DNA of 64,000 nt from positions 7,509 to 71,508 of the forward strand of contig JAGLRN010000017.1 of NCBI GenBank assembly GCA_023136265.1, read 5' to 3'. A program made the position numbers and the translations under genes. Under the pieces are notes generated by a model. That model was given only the letters and a program-made list of their open reading frames with translations. It searched no databases and was not told the DNA's origin. Positions within the stretch are counted from its first letter, which is position 1. Every line of letters begins with the position of its first letter. Shown piece by piece: positions 33,678 through 64,000 of this stretch. This DNA comes from Thermoplasmata archaeon (GTDB lineage Archaea > Thermoplasmatota > Thermoplasmata > RBG-16-68-12 > JAGMCJ01).

Positions 33678-35561
33678 CTACTCAACCGGTGGTTCTTCCT
33701 TCTTCCTGCGCTTGATGAGCACGAGCACAACCACGAGGGCCGCAACCACCATGAGCGCTATCGCCGCATACAAGACGTAGTCGAATCCCTTGTCATCTCC
33801 TTCATCATCCACGGGCGGATGGCTGTGCGGATCGTCGGGATCGGTCCCGTTCTGATACTCGACGAGGTTGGAGAACCCATCCCCATCTAGATCTTCATCG
33901 GCATCGGAGGGATCCAAGGGATCAAGAGAATTCGAGTGCTCCCAACCATCCGGCATCGTGTCCTCATCGGTGTCGTTGGACAGCGGATTCGTCCCAAGTC
34001 CATCCTCCGTCTCATCGGACAACCCATCACCGTCATCATCCAGGTCGCTGAAGTCTGGCTCACCGTCTCCGTCAGTGTCCAGGATGTCTCCCTCAAAGAT
34101 CTCCGTATGTGAGAGGTTCATGTCGACGCTCCTGTTGTGGTATGCGAAGAACAGAGTGGGGTGAGTAACCGTCACCATCGTGGTATTATGCACTCTCACA
34201 CCGTCTTCGTAGGTCTCGTGGGCAACCGTGACGTCTCGCACGTATCCCTGGACGTTGGTGACGTTGGAGAAAACGGATACACCGTTGTCTGTGATTTCAA
34301 CCGTGACATTATCGACTGGGTCCGACGTCTGGTGCTCGATGGTGTGGACGGTCAAGTAGTTCTTAACGAGGAGATGACAGGCTGGACAACCAGATCCTGC
34401 GGAGACCTTCCCGCCAAAAGTGGAGTTGACCACGACCAGAGCAGAACCTGACTCGAGGAAGAAATCCCTCAACGCCCCACTTATCGTCGAGTTGTAGAAA
34501 GTCGCGTCACCTTCGTAGGCGTACACGCCATCATCCACACCCGATATGTTTGCACCTTCGATGGTGCCAAACGAAGATCCGAGTCTCAGGCCAACAATGC
34601 TGCCTTCCGAGACATCGCCTAGGGACTGAACATTGGTGAAATCCAGGTGGAAGCCCACCTGCTCGTTTCCCCGGGCTACATTCATCCTGCTGATTAAGAG
34701 GCCGCTGCCCCAGGAATAGAAGCCAGCTACGTTATTGATGGCGGTGTTCGCAATCAGGACGGGTTGCGAAACAAAGGACCGCAGTCCATAAGTGTTGCCC
34801 TCCATCGTGTTGTTGCAGATAAGCGAAGTTGAGGATTCTAGTCGTATCCCGTGAGTGTTACTCATGAAAGTGCTGTTCTGGATTGTAACGTTCGTGTTTC
34901 GGACGTATGCACCGTTTTCCGTGTACGCGACCCTCACGTAGTTGAATACTGACGACTCACTGCCTGTGTCGAAGTACACGCCGTCCCAGTCCCCCTTCTG
35001 GGGCTCTGAGGAGTTCGAGGTGAAAATTATCATTTGGTTCCATGACCCCTGAGCGACCAAGGTTCCTGCAACAGAGAGCCTGGTTCCATTGTCAAACGCG
35101 ATAGTCGCTCCCGGATCGATGGTGAGTGTCGCATTAGCACCGACGACCAAATCCCCCTTGACAACCCTCGTGGAAGAGTCCCAGTGGTCGTCCACGACCT
35201 CGAAGGACACATTGTGGTAGAATACGTCAGGAAGCTGTGTATAGCTCGCGTTGACCCACCATGTCCCCGTCTGGTTAGCGGTGTAATTGCTTCTTGCGAG
35301 TCCGCCGTCGTCAGGATCGGATGCCACAGTGTGGACGAGCGAACCGGTAGGGTCGTACCACTGGAAATCCACATCGTTAAGCTCAGATGGCGGCGAGCCC
35401 GTGAAGTTCAGTAGCGCACCCGCCACGACCTTGGATTCGTTCACATAATCCGAGACCACTGTCACGATGTCGCTCACAGTAACAGCTGCTCTCACGTTGA
35501 CGCCGGCGAACGTGCTCGTGACAAGGATTGCCATGATGGTGATGGCAAGGCGGCTTTTCAT
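33678..35561 (-). CDS. Cell-surface right-handed beta-helix glycoprotein with TSP3-like Ca-binding D-rich repeats and a C-terminal TM anchor
   Basis: Signal peptide MKSRLAITIMAILVTSTFAG. More than 25 N-x-S/T sequons. PbH1-like repeats (NNTMEGNTYGLR, ANTAINNVAGF). DTDGDGEPDFSDLDDDGDGLSD repeats. C-terminal LYAAIALMVVAALVVVLVLIKRRKKEE. Confidence 0.75.
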   Translation of the reverse strand: MKSRLAITIMAILVTSTFAGVNVRAAVTVSDIVTVVSDYVNESKVVAGALLNFTGSPPSELNDVDFQWYDPTGSLVHTVASDPDDGGLARSNYTANQTGTWWVNASYTQLPDVFYHNVSFEVVDDHWDSSTRVVKGDLVVGANATLTIDPGATIAFDNGTRLSVAGTLVAQGSWNQMIIFTSNSSEPQKGDWDGVYFDTGSESSVFNYVRVAYTENGAYVRNTNVTIQNSTFMSNTHGIRLESSTSLICNNTMEGNTYGLRSFVSQPVLIANTAINNVAGFYSWGSGLLISRMNVARGNEQVGFHLDFTNVQSLGDVSEGSIVGLRLGSSFGTIEGANISGVDDGVYAYEGDATFYNSTISGALRDFFLESGSALVVVNSTFGGKVSAGSGCPACHLLVKNYLTVHTIEHQTSDPVDNVTVEITDNGVSVFSNVTNVQGYVRDVTVAHETYEDGVRVHNTTMVTVTHPTLFFAYHNRSVDMNLSHTEIFEGDILDTDGDGEPDFSDLDDDGDGLSDETEDGLGTNPLSNDTDEDTMPDGWEHSNSLDPLDPSDADEDLDGDGFSNLVEYQNGTDPDDPHSHPPVDDEGDDKGFDYVLYAAIALMVVAALVVVLVLIKRRKKEEPPVE

Positions 35562-37928: not shown

Positions 37929-40460
37929 GTGGGCATGAAATTTCGAGCACTTCTAGTCCTGACGGTCATCATCATTCTGTCCTGTTTTGCGAAGGACGTC
38001 TCGGCAGCCCTGACTGTGACCAACGTCACAGTGACCATGGATCGCTCCACTTTCTATGCCAACCAGTCAACTGCTACTGCAACAGCTGTCATAGAGTACA
38101 CGGCGGGCGCAGCGAAGGATATCGGTGATGTTAGTTTCACTTGGTTCAGACCAGATTGGAGCATAGCCGCCATCAGGATAGACACGGGAAAGGATGATGC
38201 GAACGCCACAAGCGCCATAACGGTCGACATGGGCGGCACATGGCACGTGAACGCCACTTACGTGAACCAAACAGACCAGTTCGACAACGTATCATTTGAA
38301 GTGGTGAGCGCTGGGGTCGTCGTTGTTTCTGACATGGTTCTAGTGGTGAACGCCCCCTATTTCGAATTGGGTGAAACGGTTGTCGCAACTTCGGCTCTTG
38401 ATTACGCAGGGAATGTCAGTCTCTTCGTGGCAGTCGATTTCACATGGATCGACTCCTCGAGCGCAGTTGTGAGGTCGATGAATGTTGTTCCCAATTCAAC
38501 TGGTGTCGCGATAGACACCTGGGGATCCGACAGCGTGGGCCCTTTCCTCATGTATGCGAACTACACGGGAGACGCACCGGTTTCCAGGTCGGTCAGCTTC
38601 GAGGTTTTCCCCACGAGGGTGAGGACCTGGCATAATCTCAGTGTCGTCGTGGATGAGGTCTGGGACTTGGCTGGAGAGCCGTACGGTGTCTGTGAAAACA
38701 TCACAATCGAGGCGGGATCAACGCTCACAATTGAAGCGGGCGTCACCGTGAGATTCTGCGAAGACACTCACATGACCGTGGACGGCGCGCTGGTCTCCGA
38801 TGGATCTCTGGATTCTTTCGTGAACTTCACCGCATTCGGCTTCTTCCCGCCAAAGGGTTACTGGGGTGGCATCATCGTGAACCCCTCCAGCGGTAGCTCC
38901 AGTAGCATCACCCACTCCCGGGTGAGCTTCGCATCAATCGGCATGCTGATAACCTCTGCAAGCCCAACCATCGAGAGAAGCTCGTTCGAGAATATAAGCA
39001 TCGCGGCCATCCAGTTCGATAATGCCACTGCGAATGCTGAGTTCAACTCGTTCGACGATGTCGGCAGAGGGATCTCCGCATCGGCTTCGGACATCGGGAT
39101 GAGGTTCAACACCTTCTCCAACGTCATGATGGGATTGGCCCTGATCGATTCCAACGCCACGCTACACGGAGACACCATCTTCAATTCGACGTCATTCGGA
39201 ATCCACGCATTCAACAGCTCCATTTCCGCTTCCCAGATCAACATCTCGCTCTCCGGCGGTAGCGCGATCAGACTGCAGTCCCAATCGCTTGCGATCATCG
39301 AATCATCTGTCATTGAGAACAGCTGGTACGGTGTCGATGCCTTCTCATCGACCTTCCACGTGAACGAGAGCAGCCTACTCACGAACGACAACGCTGTCAG
39401 GGCGAACGACGGGCAGGGAGACCTGGTTAACACGAGCATCCTCAACTCCGTGGACTTCGACTTCACGTTGGAAGGTGGAAGCTCAGTGATCGCACTCAAC
39501 TGCACGCTCAATGACAGCAAGGTCCAGGTGCTTCCAGCTTCGCGGCTCACCGTGAAGTACTTCTTGGATGTGCAGGTTGCAGACGAGGGTACCGGTGATC
39601 CAATCGGGAACGCCTTTGTGGAGATTCTGGATGATGGCTCCAGTATCTTCTCTTCGAGGACACCTTCGAGCGGCAGGGTGAGATGGATTCCCGTCACTGA
39701 CAGGATATTTGACGGAGCCGACACGCCAACAAAGCACAATATAACGATCAAGATCAGAAAGGATGGATATGACATCGTGGAGCCCGAGAGGACTGTCGAT
39801 ATGTACACATCCCGTCTGGAGGTCTTCCTCGCTACGGAGGCCATTCAAGACATATGGGAGGAGGTTCTCGATCCATTTCTCCTAATGATCCTCTTGATTG
39901 TCATCGCAATTGTGGTCGCCGCCGCCATCATGGTTCGAAGGAGGACAAGGGAGGAAGAGGAGATTGTCCCTGAGAAGAAGGTCCGCAAACCTACTGACTA
40001 CACCCTTAAGAAGGGCACGAGCTATCTTGTCGCTGGGGAGAAACCCGATCTCGCTTTCGGGATATTCTCGAATGCCATCAAAGGCGGAGCTAGCGGACTG
40101 TGCATCACAAGGACGTATCCCGACGAGGTCTCCGAAGAATACGACGTGGGAGATGCCCCGATTCTATGGCTCTCACGAGACTCCAGGCGGGCCAACATTA
40201 GTCCCACGAATTTGGGCGCGATAATCCTTGAGGCGCAGAGGTTCCTCAAGAAGGAGGAGGGCAAGGAGACGATTGTGATGCTCGATGGCATCGAGTACCT
40301 CATCGTCCAGAACGATTTCTCCAAGGTCATCAAGTTCGTTCAGACCTTGAAGGATACGATTTCCGTGGCCGGGTCCAAGCTCCTCATCCCGTTCAACTTG
40401 GCCGCATTGGAGGAATCGAGGCGGGCGTTGCTGACCCGCGACTTGGAGCTATTGGAGTGA
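37929..40460 (+). CDS. Cell-surface beta-helix glycoprotein with a TM segment and a C-terminal cytoplasmic DUF835-like domain
   Basis: Signal peptide MGMKFRALLVLTVIIILSCFAKDVSA. N-terminal domain paralogous to the 33678-35561 protein (TWHVNATY...NVSFEVV). Many PbH1-like repeats. TM LLMILLIVIAIVVAAAIMV. Tail with GLCITRTYP...WLSRD...LDGIEYLIVQNDF...LIPFNLAAL...LLTRDLELLE, matching my recollection of DUF835. Confidence 0.75.
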   Translation: MGMKFRALLVLTVIIILSCFAKDVSAALTVTNVTVTMDRSTFYANQSTATATAVIEYTAGAAKDIGDVSFTWFRPDWSIAAIRIDTGKDDANATSAITVDMGGTWHVNATYVNQTDQFDNVSFEVVSAGVVVVSDMVLVVNAPYFELGETVVATSALDYAGNVSLFVAVDFTWIDSSSAVVRSMNVVPNSTGVAIDTWGSDSVGPFLMYANYTGDAPVSRSVSFEVFPTRVRTWHNLSVVVDEVWDLAGEPYGVCENITIEAGSTLTIEAGVTVRFCEDTHMTVDGALVSDGSLDSFVNFTAFGFFPPKGYWGGIIVNPSSGSSSSITHSRVSFASIGMLITSASPTIERSSFENISIAAIQFDNATANAEFNSFDDVGRGISASASDIGMRFNTFSNVMMGLALIDSNATLHGDTIFNSTSFGIHAFNSSISASQINISLSGGSAIRLQSQSLAIIESSVIENSWYGVDAFSSTFHVNESSLLTNDNAVRANDGQGDLVNTSILNSVDFDFTLEGGSSVIALNCTLNDSKVQVLPASRLTVKYFLDVQVADEGTGDPIGNAFVEILDDGSSIFSSRTPSSGRVRWIPVTDRIFDGADTPTKHNITIKIRKDGYDIVEPERTVDMYTSRLEVFLATEAIQDIWEEVLDPFLLMILLIVIAIVVAAAIMVRRRTREEEEIVPEKKVRKPTDYTLKKGTSYLVAGEKPDLAFGIFSNAIKGGASGLCITRTYPDEVSEEYDVGDAPILWLSRDSRRANISPTNLGAIILEAQRFLKKEEGKETIVMLDGIEYLIVQNDFSKVIKFVQTLKDTISVAGSKLLIPFNLAALEESRRALLTRDLELLE

Positions 40461-60518: not shown

Positions 60519-61202
60519 ATGGCGGACGATGAATGTTCCGGTGGCAGCAGCATAAAGAGGTCATTGCTGATCATGGTCGTAATCCTCCTCATCATGATTA
60601 TGCTTCAGCCCAGTCTGAGGATGGCCTTCGGGGACATGGTGGGGTTGGCTCTCGAGCCGCTCATCGGATTCAACGGACAGTTGGCCGTCGTGTCGATGAT
60701 GTTCGCCGGATTCATAACAGGAACGATATCCATACTGATCAGGCATTTCACGACGGACTGGATAGCAGTGGCGAAGTCCCAGAAGGCCATGAGCGAGTTC
60801 AACAAGGTCTATCGGGAGACGGTGATGTCCGGCAACCGCGATAAGGTCGAGAAGCTCCAGAAGGTCCGCCAGGAGACCATGGCGGAGTTCAGCGGCATAC
60901 AGATGTCTCAGCTCAAGACACTCGCCGTCACGATGTTCGCCGTCATAATCATCTTCGCGTGGCTCATGAGTTTCATCAGCTCTGGGGTCGTCAGTTCGAA
61001 GTTCTCGGTCCCGTGGAGCCACGATGCGGACATGAAGGCCGTGGTGATATTCATACCGCAATGGGTCCTCCTCTACGCCGTGTTGTCCTCTCCTCTCACG
61101 CTCCTCCTGCCGAGGATCTTGAAGTACTACTCCTACAAGAAGAAGCTAGAGGCCGAGGAGTATGAGGACGAGGGGTGGGAGGACGAATCAGCGGTGGATT
61201 GA
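60519..61202 (+). CDS. DUF106 family membrane protein (archaeal Oxa1/YidC/EMC3-like insertase homolog)
   Basis: Three TM helices with a cytoplasmic coiled-coil loop (KAMSEFNKVYRETVMSGNRDKVEKLQKVRQETMAEF). The position next to pfdB/cmk is typical. Confidence 0.65.
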   Translation: MADDECSGGSSIKRSLLIMVVILLIMIMLQPSLRMAFGDMVGLALEPLIGFNGQLAVVSMMFAGFITGTISILIRHFTTDWIAVAKSQKAMSEFNKVYRETVMSGNRDKVEKLQKVRQETMAEFSGIQMSQLKTLAVTMFAVIIIFAWLMSFISSGVVSSKFSVPWSHDADMKAVVIFIPQWVLLYAVLSSPLTLLLPRILKYYSYKKKLEAEEYEDEGWEDESAVD

Positions 61203-61753
61203 TGATCGTAACTATCGGCGGAAGACCGGGGAGCGGCAAGACAACAGTTGCACGAAGGGTCGCCGAGAAGCTGGGTTTTGAGCTGGTTTGCGCCGGTGAG
61301 GTCTTCCGAAGCCAGGCAAGGAAGATGGGCGTGGACCTCGAGGAGTACGGCAGGCGGGCGCTCGAGGACGACAGCATCGACAAGACGCTCGACTCGTTGG
61401 TCCTTGACAGGATCCGGGCGACGTCCTCTCAGGGGATGAACGTCGTCGCGGACGGTCGACTTACAGGTCAGATGCTCTCAAGGGAAGGCGTCCAGGCGTT
61501 CAAGGTCTGGATCGATGCCGACATCGGCGTCAGGTCCCAACGGATTGCGGGGCGGGACCGCATCGGCGCGGACGTGGCCCTGCGCCGCATTGAGAAGCGG
61601 GAAGAGGTCGAGAGGAAGCGGTACTCCTCGATCTACGGTATCGACCTCGACGACCTTTCGGCGTACGATCTCGTGATAGACTCTTCCGACCTGAGGCCGG
61701 GGGAGGTCTTGGAGCGAATTGTGGACGGTCTGAAGAAATGCGCGGGAATATGA
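61202..61753 (+). CDS. cmk: Cytidylate kinase (archaeal type)
   Basis: MIVTIGGRPGSGKTTVARRVAEKLGF P-loop. The track ORF is extended to 61175. Confidence 0.8.
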   Translation: MIVTIGGRPGSGKTTVARRVAEKLGFELVCAGEVFRSQARKMGVDLEEYGRRALEDDSIDKTLDSLVLDRIRATSSQGMNVVADGRLTGQMLSREGVQAFKVWIDADIGVRSQRIAGRDRIGADVALRRIEKREEVERKRYSSIYGIDLDDLSAYDLVIDSSDLRPGEVLERIVDGLKKCAGI

Positions 61754-62667
61754 GCGAAGAGGACCCCGCCGAGGAAGTGGAGCGGCTCTTGGGTTCCGGG
61801 GTCATCAATGTGGACAAGCCGCAGGGACCGACGTCGCATCAGGTGTCCGCTTGGGCCAGGAAGATGCTGGACGCTGAGCGGGCAGGACACGGCGGGACGC
61901 TCGATCCCCGCGTGACCGGAGTCCTGCCAATCGCACTCAACCGCGCGACAAAGGCCCTCGGCGCGTTGCTGTACGGCGACAAGGAGTACGTGGGCGTCCT
62001 TCACCTCCATCAGGACGTCAAGGAGGAGAGGGTCAGAGGCGTCATGAAGGATTTCGTGGGAGAGATATACCAGGTTCCGCCGGTGCGGGCGGCCGTGAAG
62101 AGGAGGAGGCGGACGAGGTGGATATACGAGCTCGAGCCGCTCGAGTTCCAGGGAAGGAATGCTCTCTTCAGGGTCCGGAGCGAGTCGGGGACATACATCC
62201 GCACTCTCTGCGTGGACATCGGTGAAGCCCTCGGCGTGGGGGCCCACATGGCCGACCTGAGGAGGACGAGGTCCGCGGGATTCTCCGAAGATGAGAGCGT
62301 CACGCTGCAGGACGTTCTCGATGCTTACGTATTCTGGAAGGAGGACCGGGATCCCTCGCATCTGAGAGAAGTGATACTTCCCATGGAGAGCCTTCTCTCA
62401 CATCTCGCACGCGTCACTGTCAAGGATTCGGCCGTGGACGCACTGTGCCACGGTGCGGACCTTGCTGTCCCCGGGGTCTCGAGACTGGATTCAACATTCG
62501 TGTCCGGGGATGTCGTTGCGATGTTCACGCGGAAAGGAGAAGGCATCGCTATCGGGAAGGCAAGGCTGAAATCGAGCAAGATAGTCGAGAAGGACCGCGG
62601 AGTCGCTGTCAACGTGCAGCGAGTCTTCATGTCGCCGGGGACGTATCCGAAGATGTGGAAGAGCTGA
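61738..62667 (+). CDS. cbf5: tRNA/rRNA pseudouridine synthase Cbf5 (H/ACA RNP catalytic subunit, TruB family with PUA)
   Basis: VINVDKPQGPTSHQV and GTLDPRVTGVL catalytic Asp motif. C-terminal PUA domain. Confidence 0.9.
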   Translation: MRGNMSEEDPAEEVERLLGSGVINVDKPQGPTSHQVSAWARKMLDAERAGHGGTLDPRVTGVLPIALNRATKALGALLYGDKEYVGVLHLHQDVKEERVRGVMKDFVGEIYQVPPVRAAVKRRRRTRWIYELEPLEFQGRNALFRVRSESGTYIRTLCVDIGEALGVGAHMADLRRTRSAGFSEDESVTLQDVLDAYVFWKEDRDPSHLREVILPMESLLSHLARVTVKDSAVDALCHGADLAVPGVSRLDSTFVSGDVVAMFTRKGEGIAIGKARLKSSKIVEKDRGVAVNVQRVFMSPGTYPKMWKS

Positions 62668-62727
62668 GCGGGCAAATCAGTTATCTTTTTATTCCCGCTT
62701 CGAATAGGTGGACTGGCGGAGCCCGAT

Positions 62728-62812
62728 GCCGAGGTGGCCCAGTCTGGTAAGGCGCGAGCCTGGAGAGCTCGTGGTGCTTTGCACCTCGGGAGTTCGAATC
62801 TCCCCCTCGGCG
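62728..62812 (+). tRNA. tRNA-Ser (GGA)
   Basis: Acceptor gccgagg/cctcggc. Anticodon arm cgagc-ctGGAga-gctcg. Long variable arm ggtgc/gcacc. T-arm gggag-ttcgaat-ctccc. Confidence 0.7.
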
Positions 62813-62865
62813 CTTTTCTACTAGTAAATATCAAATACGGGTAATACGATAGGCCTTCGATAAGA

Positions 62866-63390
62866 ATGGGCAAAACGGACACCATCAAGAAGCGAGCAAT
62901 CTACGTCTATCTTCCCTCTTTGGAGATGGTGCACCATTGGAAGGAGCTTGCCTCTCGTCAGGACTTATCAGTGTCGAAGTTCGTGACCGAACACGTCGAG
63001 GATTCTCTTCGTCAGGAGGAGGGAGAAGAAGGCTTCATGTCTCGAGCGGAACTGATGAAGAAGGCGACAGAACTCGAGTCACAAGTGGGCGAGTTGTCCA
63101 GGGAACGGAGGATGTTGCGGACAGTGGTGGGGAAGCTCGAAAGGGACCTCAAGGTCCAGTCCACTAGGGATTTTCTGGACGAAGAGTTCGAGGGAACAAG
63201 GAGCTTCGACAGAGAACTGGTGGAACTGCTCAGAGTCGGTAGATCCCTCATGGACGATGAGCTGTTGGAGGGACTGGGTTTGGAATGCGATGATATGGAA
63301 GCCAGAAAAACCGTCGGCAAGCAGCTGGAATCACTCGAGTCCTACGGACTGGTGAAAGCAACCAGCAATGGATGGGTTTGGAGGGAGTGA
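62866..63390 (+). CDS. Ribbon-helix-helix (CopG-like) protein with coiled-coil C-terminal part, integrated-element associated
   Basis: N-terminus KKRAIYVYLPSLEMVHHWKELA (beta-strand then helices) is RHH-like. Located between tRNA-Ser and the integrase. Confidence 0.5.
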   Translation: MGKTDTIKKRAIYVYLPSLEMVHHWKELASRQDLSVSKFVTEHVEDSLRQEEGEEGFMSRAELMKKATELESQVGELSRERRMLRTVVGKLERDLKVQSTRDFLDEEFEGTRSFDRELVELLRVGRSLMDDELLEGLGLECDDMEARKTVGKQLESLESYGLVKATSNGWVWRE

Positions 63391-63394
63391 TCGG

Positions 63395-64000
63395 ATGGAG
63401 TCTGTTCCTGCAGGGAAAGGAGAGGAAATATCGGGTGAATCGCTTCTTCAGGATTTCATCGAGGACTGCGCTCTCAGGGGCATGGCGAAGGCAACGGTTA
63501 GAAGCTACAGGTCAAATGTTGGGAAGTTCCTGCGGTTTCTTGAACGAGAGAATGGAAGCATTCATGACCTCGACCAAGAACATCTCAAGGGCCTCTTCGC
63601 TCTTCTCAGGAAAAGGAGATTCTCTGCCAACACGATCCTGAACTACTTCAGCTCAATATCAAGCTTCTACGACTTCCTCATATCGGAGGGACTTGTTCCG
63701 ACCAATCCCGTCGTCCCTTTCAGAAGGCGCTACCTACGGAGGGTAAGCCGCGAAAGGGAGAAGAGCAGGGCGAACTCCCCCAGAAAGCTCCTTTCCGCCC
63801 GCGAAATGTCCATACTTGCGAACTCCATCCTTAGCGTCAGGGACAGGGCAATAGTGGTTCTTCTGGCCAAGACCGGAAACAGGAGGGGAGAACTTGTGAG
63901 AATCGATGTTGACGACATCGATTGGGATGAGATGTCGATACGATTGAAGGAGCACCCGAAAGGGAGCAACACAACAGTTTTCTTTGACTCTGAGACCGCG
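63395..64000 (+). CDS. int: Tyrosine recombinase/integrase (XerC/D or phage-integrase family), 3'-truncated by window end
   Basis: N-terminal SAM-like core-binding domain (VRSYRSNVGKFLRF...NTILNYFSSISSFYDF). Start of the catalytic domain RAIVVLLAKTGNRRGELVRIDVDDID (box I Arg). The frame is open to the window end. Confidence 0.8.
   Translation, partial: MESVPAGKGEEISGESLLQDFIEDCALRGMAKATVRSYRSNVGKFLRFLERENGSIHDLDQEHLKGLFALLRKRRFSANTILNYFSSISSFYDFLISEGLVPTNPVVPFRRRYLRRVSREREKSRANSPRKLLSAREMSILANSILSVRDRAIVVLLAKTGNRRGELVRIDVDDIDWDEMSIRLKEHPKGSNTTVFFDSETA

Follow-up and report, generated by a model that had tools for sequence, protein, structure and literature searches.

The left end of a predicted mobile element at a Thermoplasmata tRNA-Ser(GGA) gene and the archaeal two-gene integrase module that it carries

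In the Thaumarchaeota, cryptic integrated elements have been described that encode integrases of the XerC/XerD family, target the 3' ends of tRNA genes and form a class without virus or plasmid hallmark genes. According to the portions of that survey used here, their attachment (att) repeats are short (median 17 bp), tandem integrations are possible, and restriction-modification and CopG/ribbon-helix-helix (RHH) proteins are among the commonest families over all thaumarchaeal integrated elements (Krupovic et al., 2019; PMC6563490). In the haloarchaeal pleolipovirus SNJ2, whose family is reported as confined to Halobacteria, the integrase is co-transcribed with Orf2, a coiled-coil protein, and Orf3, a MarR-like winged-helix protein; both stimulate recombination, and the att core within the tRNA gene is 14 bp long (Wang et al., 2018, PMC5861418; reviewed in PMC8371274). 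The cofactors of SNJ2 are the only accessory factors of archaeal integrases listed in the same review (PMC8371274). A further group, the integrases of pNOB8 type, has reported att sites of 40-50 bp and the motif R...YxxR...Y. Here we compare with these systems the end of a 64-kb stretch of DNA from a Thermoplasmata archaeon (contig JAGLRN010000017.1; 64,000 nucleotides (nt), hereafter the window), where an intact tRNA-Ser(GGA) gene is followed by a gene for a small protein of 174 amino acids (aa) and by the first part of a gene for a XerA-like tyrosine integrase.

We consider it very probable that positions 62814-64000 of the window are the left end of a mobile element that is inserted site-specifically in the 3' end of tRNA-Ser(GGA), and that this element is one of an archaeal family defined by a module. 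Reading away from the tRNA 3' end, the module begins with a palindrome and a TATA-like box, and two genes follow, of which the first encodes a protein of about 175 aa and the second a XerA-like integrase of about 320 aa. Islands with an integrase at a tRNA gene are in themselves ordinary, and Xer-like integrases are known to occur with RHH proteins in archaeal islands. The module is a widespread archaeal family that has no name and spans several phyla.

Strain variation at the tRNA-Ser(GGA) site

The tRNA-Ser(GGA) gene (62728..62813, plus strand) is the single tRNA that ARAGORN called in the window, and the Rfam tRNA model agrees with it (54.7 bits at 62728-62812). The left junction (attL) is formed by the 3' end of this intact gene: ARAGORN, Rfam and the comparison of contigs all place the beginning of the element there. 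Archaeal housekeeping genes fill the upstream side, the last of them being cmk (61175-61753) and cbf5 (61750-62667), which finishes shortly upstream of the tRNA.

An exact-protein search with Cbf5 retrieved six sister-sample contigs together with a metagenome-assembled genome (MAG) from NCBI. Across 10 kb of host flank, through the tRNA, the contigs L004-L009 are 99.8-100% identical to the window; beyond the tRNA the sequences differ, and contigs with an identical host flank part company 1-3 nt past its end at 62813. The same element follows the tRNA in L004, an unrelated integrase of 396 aa that has a zinc ribbon at its C terminus follows it in L005 and L007, and L006 continues for 42 nt with a third sequence until the contig ends; L008 and L009 break at the tRNA. 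Furthermore, a genome from GTDB whose flank is 96% identical (L040) lacks an integrase at this place; beyond the tRNA come 200 non-coding nt and then a convergent gene for a surface protein, an arrangement that probably represents the unoccupied site. The tail of L006 is loosely similar to the post-tRNA sequence of L040.

The original prediction, which was made from the sequence alone, had located the tRNA-Ser(GGA) gene at 62728, had seen the run of housekeeping genes stop there and had proposed an integrated element beyond it, to be compared with strains lacking the insertion. The results above agree with it on each of these points. The integrated element is also backed by two findings set out below, namely the presence of the two-gene module downstream of many tRNA genes in unrelated genomic contexts and a repeat at the right end of one relative, L172. 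A fall in GC at the tRNA and a degenerate copy of the tRNA 3' end in a relative MAG, L223, add to this support.

Several contigs (L001, L002 and L012) start inside the tRNA, and these starts were tried as boundaries of att repeats and rejected. The breaks, at k = 55 and k = 31, all indicate a branch 2-3 nt past the tRNA and are thus explained by strain heterogeneity.

A number of further observations concern this site and its surroundings. In L004, the host flank is 100.00% identical to the window over 10,014 bp and the element (L004:11065-13634 against window 62814-64000) is 97.6% identical; the step in identity falls exactly at the tRNA end, as if variants of the element swap independently of the chromosome. 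The second type of integrase at tRNA-Ser(GGA), with 396 aa and the C-terminal zinc ribbon, is encoded at L005:11107-12297, L007:5589-6704 and L107:6013-7200 (minus strand), and has a palindrome of its own, TTAACCAAAGGTTAA, ahead of the gene. The L107 element also encodes a 578-aa ATPase-TOPRIM protein like OLD, AriA and GajA, and downstream of the second integrase in L005 lies a gene for a beta-helix/NosD-like secreted protein, and two segments of the window (34773-35165, minus strand, and 38604-39116) encode relatives of that protein with 28-38% identity. The order cmk, cbf5, tRNA-Ser(GGA) (61175-62813 in the window) is conserved in genomes of Methanosarcinales, Methanotrichaceae and Thermoplasmata, having been seen in L017, L039, L049, L062, L066, L075, L082 and others. 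The final 26 nt of tRNA-Ser(GGA) are identical in these genomes and are common to the CGA and TGA isoacceptors of tRNA-Ser.

The integrase and its 174-residue partner

The integrase gene (63395..64000, plus strand) opens with an ATG at 63395, four bases past the stop codon of the 174-aa open reading frame (ORF), and 202 of its 321 codons are present before the window ends. The 202 visible residues are identical to MCK4948925.1 (P0001), a protein from a Thermoplasmata MAG that is annotated as a tyrosine recombinase/integrase and has an open frame across all 321 codons. A near-identical full-length copy (L001, 321 aa) matches the Pfam family Phage_integrase (PF00589; E 1.8e-23, 83.6 bits against a cut-off of 27.1), and the SAM-like N-terminal domains PF13495 and PF02899 are also above their cut-offs in this copy. 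The prediction of a tyrosine integrase gene cut by the end of the window was therefore sound, on the Pfam match and on the identity to MCK4948925.1.

An undivided 321-codon integrase gene adjoins the tRNA in P0001, L001, L004, L010 and L012; it is not split as in elements of the SSV (suicidal) type. In this respect the module is like the pNOB8-type integrases (type II, lambda-like), whose gene is also unsplit and whose att site lies outside it, in the tRNA 3' end. The module family differs from them in its 15-bp repeat, seen in L172, and in its HxxR motif.

The best NCBIfam match of the integrase is the archaeal XerA model (NF040815), and the closest solved structure by sequence is XerA of Thermoplasma acidophilum (5HXY, E 2e-18). 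Like archaeal XerA, the protein has a SAM-like N-terminal domain and a catalytic domain, and the residues Arg, Lys, His-x-x-Arg and Tyr (R163, K189, H265, R268 and Y300) are conserved across an alignment of 22 members, the window itself covering R163 and K189 only. Relatives are also about 55% identical across phyla, so one might ask whether the two genes are simply host housekeeping genes, for a chromosomal dif recombinase of the XerA type and a regulator as its partner. We regard this as extremely improbable. The match to the XerA model reaches 175.4 bits and falls below the equivalog cut-off of 220, as do those of eight related integrases (161-187 bits), every member tested being under it. 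Furthermore, contigs whose flanks are 99.8-100% identical lack the gene or have something else in its place, the module adjoins different tRNA genes in different genomic contexts, and att repeats bound L172. The second catalytic His of T. acidophilum XerA (in LGH) aligns to an invariant Asp (in ELRGD) in 22 of 22 family members; this Asp is residue 291 of P0001 and lies beyond the end of the window. On the score in particular, the integrase is XerA-like yet not the chromosomal dif recombinase. In the original prediction a XerA-type dif recombinase in conserved synteny had been held up against the mobile element; the score of 175 bits against 220, and a synteny beyond the tRNA that varies within the strain population, speak for the mobile element.

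A different question is whether the copy in the window can still move. Its integrase has Asn beside Arg163 (codon 162, 63875-63883), where 21 relatives have Ile, Val or Leu, and Gly beside Lys189 (codon 190, 63956-63964), where 21 relatives have Arg; neither change is found in the sister-sample copies or in any other family member. These changes at invariant or near-invariant positions could reflect impaired activity or could be errors in the MAG consensus. Decayed copies of the module do exist elsewhere, for example in L120, where the integrase is truncated, and the element might accordingly be an immobilised remnant that was integrated and then left in place by a damaged integrase. However, P0001 has an uninterrupted reading frame of 321 codons and retains the catalytic residues themselves, and copies from the same samples carry the usual residues. 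We therefore judge a remnant unlikely, although it deserves to be kept in mind, and continue to favour a mobile element.

The partner gene (62866..63390, plus strand) was delimited as an ORF and its 174-aa product, a predicted DNA-binding protein, was characterized with PHROG, AlphaFold and Foldseek. The protein has no Pfam match. Residues 12-49 give a weak match to an Arc-like repressor in PHROG (E 7e-4), and an alignment to CopG made with hhalign is in register and not significant (probability 1.35%). An AlphaFold model built from a 16-sequence alignment (mean predicted local distance difference test, pLDDT, 74) contains short helices at residues 19-31 and 36-51, a long coiled-coil helix at 60-104 and, at the C terminus, a bundle of three helices with a hairpin; the strand of an RHH fold is unformed in this monomer model. 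In Foldseek, about 60 residues of the C-terminal part superpose at 2-2.7 A on DNA-binding domains of the winged-helix type (BirA, CggR, MarR-like), though the E-values are weak. The model thus suggests an RHH-like region, which is only plausible, followed by a coiled coil and a C-terminal winged helix. The original label of an RHH protein is retained in this guarded form, for the PHROG match, two helices and a CopG alignment that is in register but not significant; the coiled coil and the winged helix are additions to that first description.

With these two additions the partner protein recalls SNJ2. In both cases a coiled coil and a winged helix accompany the integrase, here within one protein encoded just upstream of it, and the cores are of similar length (15 bp here). 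In SNJ2, by contrast, the accessory functions are divided between two proteins, for which no RHH-like region has been reported. Searched by tblastn with the small protein, the GenBank phage collection yielded nothing at E <= 0.01, although the presence of SNJ2 in that collection was not established and the search did not include a direct comparison with Orf2 and Orf3. By analogy, then, SNJ2 would be the closest functional precedent, the likeness being one of function and not of membership.

The module and its palindrome across archaea

Relatives of the integrase with 52-58% identity are many, in Bathyarchaeia, Thermofilum, Thermoproteota and Nitrososphaerales MAGs, and relatives of the small protein (about 179 aa) are 48-55% identical. 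In a full HMMER scan, the family of the small protein, which has no Pfam domain, amounts to 688 clusters when grouped at 50% identity, and 417 of these have E <= 1e-10; JGI metagenomes scanned with the protein alignment added 80 loci. Relatives of the two proteins at about 50-57% identity co-occur, and the small gene and the integrase gene are adjacent in every genomic context retrieved, and the pair recurs in hundreds of archaeal contigs from Thermoplasmata, Methanotrichaceae, Bathyarchaeia and Nitrososphaerales. For example, in L064, a Methanotrichaceae MAG in GTDB, the module lies downstream of a tRNA-Ser, with identities of 38% and 47.5%. We found no earlier account of the pairing with the small protein, of the palindrome or of the Asp variant in the literature searched, which did not extend to arCOG assignments.

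Wherever the upstream DNA sufficed, a tRNA gene on the same strand ends 50-80 nt ahead of the small gene. Of the 85 family loci analysed, 45 showed this placement and the remainder mostly had no upstream DNA; the tRNAs were mainly tRNA-Leu (27), tRNA-Glu (9) and tRNA-Ser (4), with a few others, some of which are mistyped intron-bearing genes. About half of the JGI metagenome contigs start within 260 nt upstream of the small gene, a pattern that would fit assembly breaks at variable sites.

Between the tRNA and the small gene lies a 12-bp palindrome, TCTACTAGTAAA (62817..62828), the proposed binding site of the 174-aa protein. It is the sole match to its motif in the window, where 0.07 would be expected by chance. 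The family consensus, TTTACYRGTAAA, is present with up to two mismatches in 69 of 73 family loci, where it lies 3-5 nt beyond the tRNA 3' end and ends 38-42 nt ahead of the start codon; in 1.57 Mb of retrieved DNA, 80 of the 91 occurrences of the palindrome are directly upstream of a homologous gene. In an alignment of the upstream regions of the family, the palindrome is directly followed by the conserved columns of a TATA-like box, TATCAAATAC in the window (62829..62838, plus strand; family consensus TTTTAAATAC), which stands 27 nt ahead of the ATG. The spacing between box and start codon is typical of archaeal promoters, and we therefore take the box as the putative promoter of the two-gene operon.

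Some loci preserve only parts of this arrangement. At L120:1807-3140, in a Methanomassiliicoccaceae MAG, a decayed module is found at tRNA-Ser(TGA), with a small protein of 28% identity; its integrase is truncated to the N-terminal domain, and a histidine kinase gene of host-like character comes directly after it. In Candidatus Methanocrinis natronophilus Mx (L095:7176-7362) and a Thermoplasmata MAG (L111:3788-3870), palindrome-like sites (TTTACTTGTAAA and TTTACTAGTGAA, respectively) lie beyond tRNA-Ser and are followed, instead of by the small gene, by a shared hairpin, GAACTACCCTACCCTAAAGGGTAGGGC. L111 and L065 had been considered as further copies of the element in the window and were withdrawn; L111 proved to be an intron-bearing tRNA-Ser(CGA) followed by the hairpin that it shares with L095, with no homologous gene visible.

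Attachment repeats, cargo and a possible mechanism

Both ends of an element could be seen in L172. Here the 3'-terminal 15 nt of a tRNA-Ser(CGA) (ATCCCTTCCCCGGCG, positions 70-84 of 85) are repeated exactly once, 9.4 kb downstream, which is the sole repeat of that tRNA, and a second perfect palindrome lies 12 nt to the left of the right-hand repeat. Joining the two ends would give an attP with the order palindrome, N12, 15-bp core, N4-5, palindrome. As the L172 repeat covers those tRNA positions, we take ATCTCCCCCTCGGCG (62798..62812, plus strand), which comprises the 3' strands of the T-stem and the acceptor stem, as the predicted att core of the element in the window, by analogy only. The 9.4 kb between the repeats carry the module and genes for GmrSD, SIR2-like and MazE-like proteins. 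Downstream of the right repeat is a zinc-ribbon integrase of the second type, which indicates a tandem array of integrase elements and suggests tandem use of one site. On the other side, just upstream of the targeted tRNA, L172 has a serine recombinase gene with Resolvase and Recombinase domains (L172:8122-8982), so that this tRNA has mobile-element genes on both sides.

Elsewhere the search for right ends gave less. No match of at least 11-12 nt to the tRNA was present in L001, L004, L010, L012, L005, L107, L120 or L132, and no exact match to the tRNA 3' half was present in IMG/VR. A walk along the flank by way of the surface protein reached only L223, a MAG with 79% identity in Cbf5, and not the species of the window; L223 has a degenerate copy of the tRNA 3' end (18/26) at the expected distance ahead of the ortholog of the L040 flank gene, with a restriction-modification gene and a large transglutaminase-like gene beyond it.

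Candidate right ends in other relatives were rejected. The 16-mer of L107 (one mismatch) covers the anticodon arm only and has no extension, the 17-mer of L176 (one mismatch) lies within a 693-aa ORF and the 13-mer of L170 matches the 5' part of the tRNA, the last two being treated as chance. The second perfect palindrome of L160 and L135 is also due to chance, since it lies inside the conserved TGES-LPV motif of a P-type ATPase gene, and there is no tRNA fragment beyond the palindrome-like site of L174. Exact copies of the 26-mer at the tRNA-Ser 3' end occur outside the tRNAs called by ARAGORN in L014, L022, L026, L028, L032, L047, L069, L076 and L081, and likewise in L086, L092, L096, L097, L099, L103, L108, L123 and L126. 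Some of these orphan copies may be intron-bearing tRNAs missed by ARAGORN and others leftover att sites; none was counted as an attR.

Independent contigs extend the element in the window by varying amounts, reaching 4.6 kb in L001, 5.8 kb in L010 (a 117-kb contig) and 7.7 kb in L012, an 87%-identical variant. Downstream of the integrase they encode small proteins, two of them CopG/RHH-like, a 358-383-aa protein without a detectable family and a 280-aa protein with RHH and coiled-coil parts; L012 further encodes a fragment of an integrase and two more proteins, one of 382 aa with a winged helix and one of 768 aa in which a coiled coil and a zinc ribbon accompany an N-terminal winged helix. Queries of the genome, viral and metagenome contig collections with the integrase and with the 358-aa cargo protein returned nothing, or one 23%-identical match. 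In 5.8-7.7 kb of this element we detected no capsid, portal, terminase, replication, conjugation or defence family. In 23 related loci, the 10 kb beyond the module contain 137 ORFs, which recurrently encode integrases, ResIII, TIR, DNA methylases, transposases, QueC/PAPS reductase, SNF2, Cas1 and glycosyltransferases, and include no virion, replication or conjugation family.

These data bear on what kind of element this is, which the original prediction had left as a provirus or an integrative plasmid. Integration at a tRNA gene, an adjacent integrase and small repressor-like proteins are typical of temperate viruses, several small RHH/CopG-like genes do follow the integrase, and the rest of the element lies beyond the DNA seen; it might thus encode capsid and packaging genes, with the module serving a temperate archaeal virus. 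We nevertheless hold a provirus to be highly improbable, as no virion or packaging family occurs in 5.8-7.7 kb of the element or in the 137 ORFs of its relatives, neither the 2.9 million viral contigs of IMG/VR nor the GenBank phage set contains a relative of the small protein, and the complete relative L172 carries only the GmrSD, SIR2-like and MazE-like genes as cargo. Similarly, an integrative plasmid or integrative-conjugative element, with replication or transfer genes beyond the retrieved part, is improbable. The 768-aa protein of L012, whose function is unknown, and the weak NikA/MbpA-like matches of the 280-aa protein (E about 1e-3) would fit such an element. However, the NikA-like matches are under the curated cut-offs, no Rep, MCM, primase-polymerase, VirB4 or VirD4 family was detected, and the small protein has no relative among the 72,556 plasmids of PLSDB. 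Thus neither of the two proposed identities found support in these genes. Because the cargo seen consists of small regulators and proteins of unknown function, without hallmark genes, 'cryptic integrated element' appears to be the best name, in preference to provirus or plasmid.

This name links the element to those of the Thaumarchaeota. In both, a Xer-like integrase is left intact by insertion at a tRNA 3' end, and the 15-bp repeat of L172, the tandem arrangement and the similar cargo are further points in common with what is used here of the thaumarchaeal survey (PMC6563490); some members of the module family, moreover, come from Nitrososphaerales MAGs. The host in the present case belongs to the Thermoplasmata, and neither the pairing with a protein of about 175 aa nor the palindrome adjacent to the tRNA is described in those parts of the survey (PMC6563490).

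Several points weigh against the interpretation as a mobile element of a module-defined family, and they are brought together here. The base composition changes at the tRNA, local GC content going from 0.60-0.63 immediately upstream to 0.52 beyond it; however, this is a modest signal, in that GC downstream of the tRNA is 0.516 against 0.564 +/- 0.022 for the host part, and is equally low in 9 of 206 host windows. The attR of this particular element would lie outside the DNA of all copies recovered, the 5.7-7.7 kb of the L010, L012 and L001 copies containing no tRNA match of at least 11-12 nt; both ends have been seen in one family member only, L172, and no tRNA repeat was present in some 20 further loci for which 10 kb of DNA beyond the module was available. 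The Asn and Gly substitutions may impair the integrase copy in the window. Finally, the RHH assignment of the partner is statistically weak, and its binding to the palindrome and its role in recombination are inferred from the arrangement of sites and genes.

With these reservations, the mobile element that we favour could work as follows. The integrase would exchange strands within a core of about 15 bp that is common to the element and to the last bases of the tRNA, and because the core is shared the tRNA would stay intact. The small protein would bind the palindromes that flank the core in the circular form. As the palindrome abuts the TATA-like box, such binding might repress or time the two-gene operon; and as the reconstructed attP has a palindrome on either side of the core, the protein might also help to assemble, shape or direct the recombination complex. 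A bolder proposal, which is possible though rather doubtful at present, is that this protein of about 175 aa serves, in a single chain, as a dedicated factor for both architecture and directionality and bridges two palindromic arm sites around the core of about 15 bp. Together with the Asp-variant XerA-like integrase it would then form a pan-archaeal module that prefers tRNAs with a long arm (Leu and Ser) and tRNA-Glu, and carries defence islands between strains.

In summary, the window itself shows the boundary of a strain-variable island in a Thermoplasmata MAG, which is routine. The family of modules is of wider interest, as it offers a compact candidate accessory factor with a predicted binding site, and little is known of the accessory factors of archaeal integrases. 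The succession of tRNA 3' end, TTTACYRGTAAA, a gene of about 175 codons and an integrase gene forms a signature that marks the left edge of integrated elements, and this would be useful in uncultured archaea of several phyla, where the borders of islands are hard to call. Furthermore, with at least two unrelated types of integrase at one tRNA site in one population, this locus could serve as a natural system for the study of competition for attachment sites.

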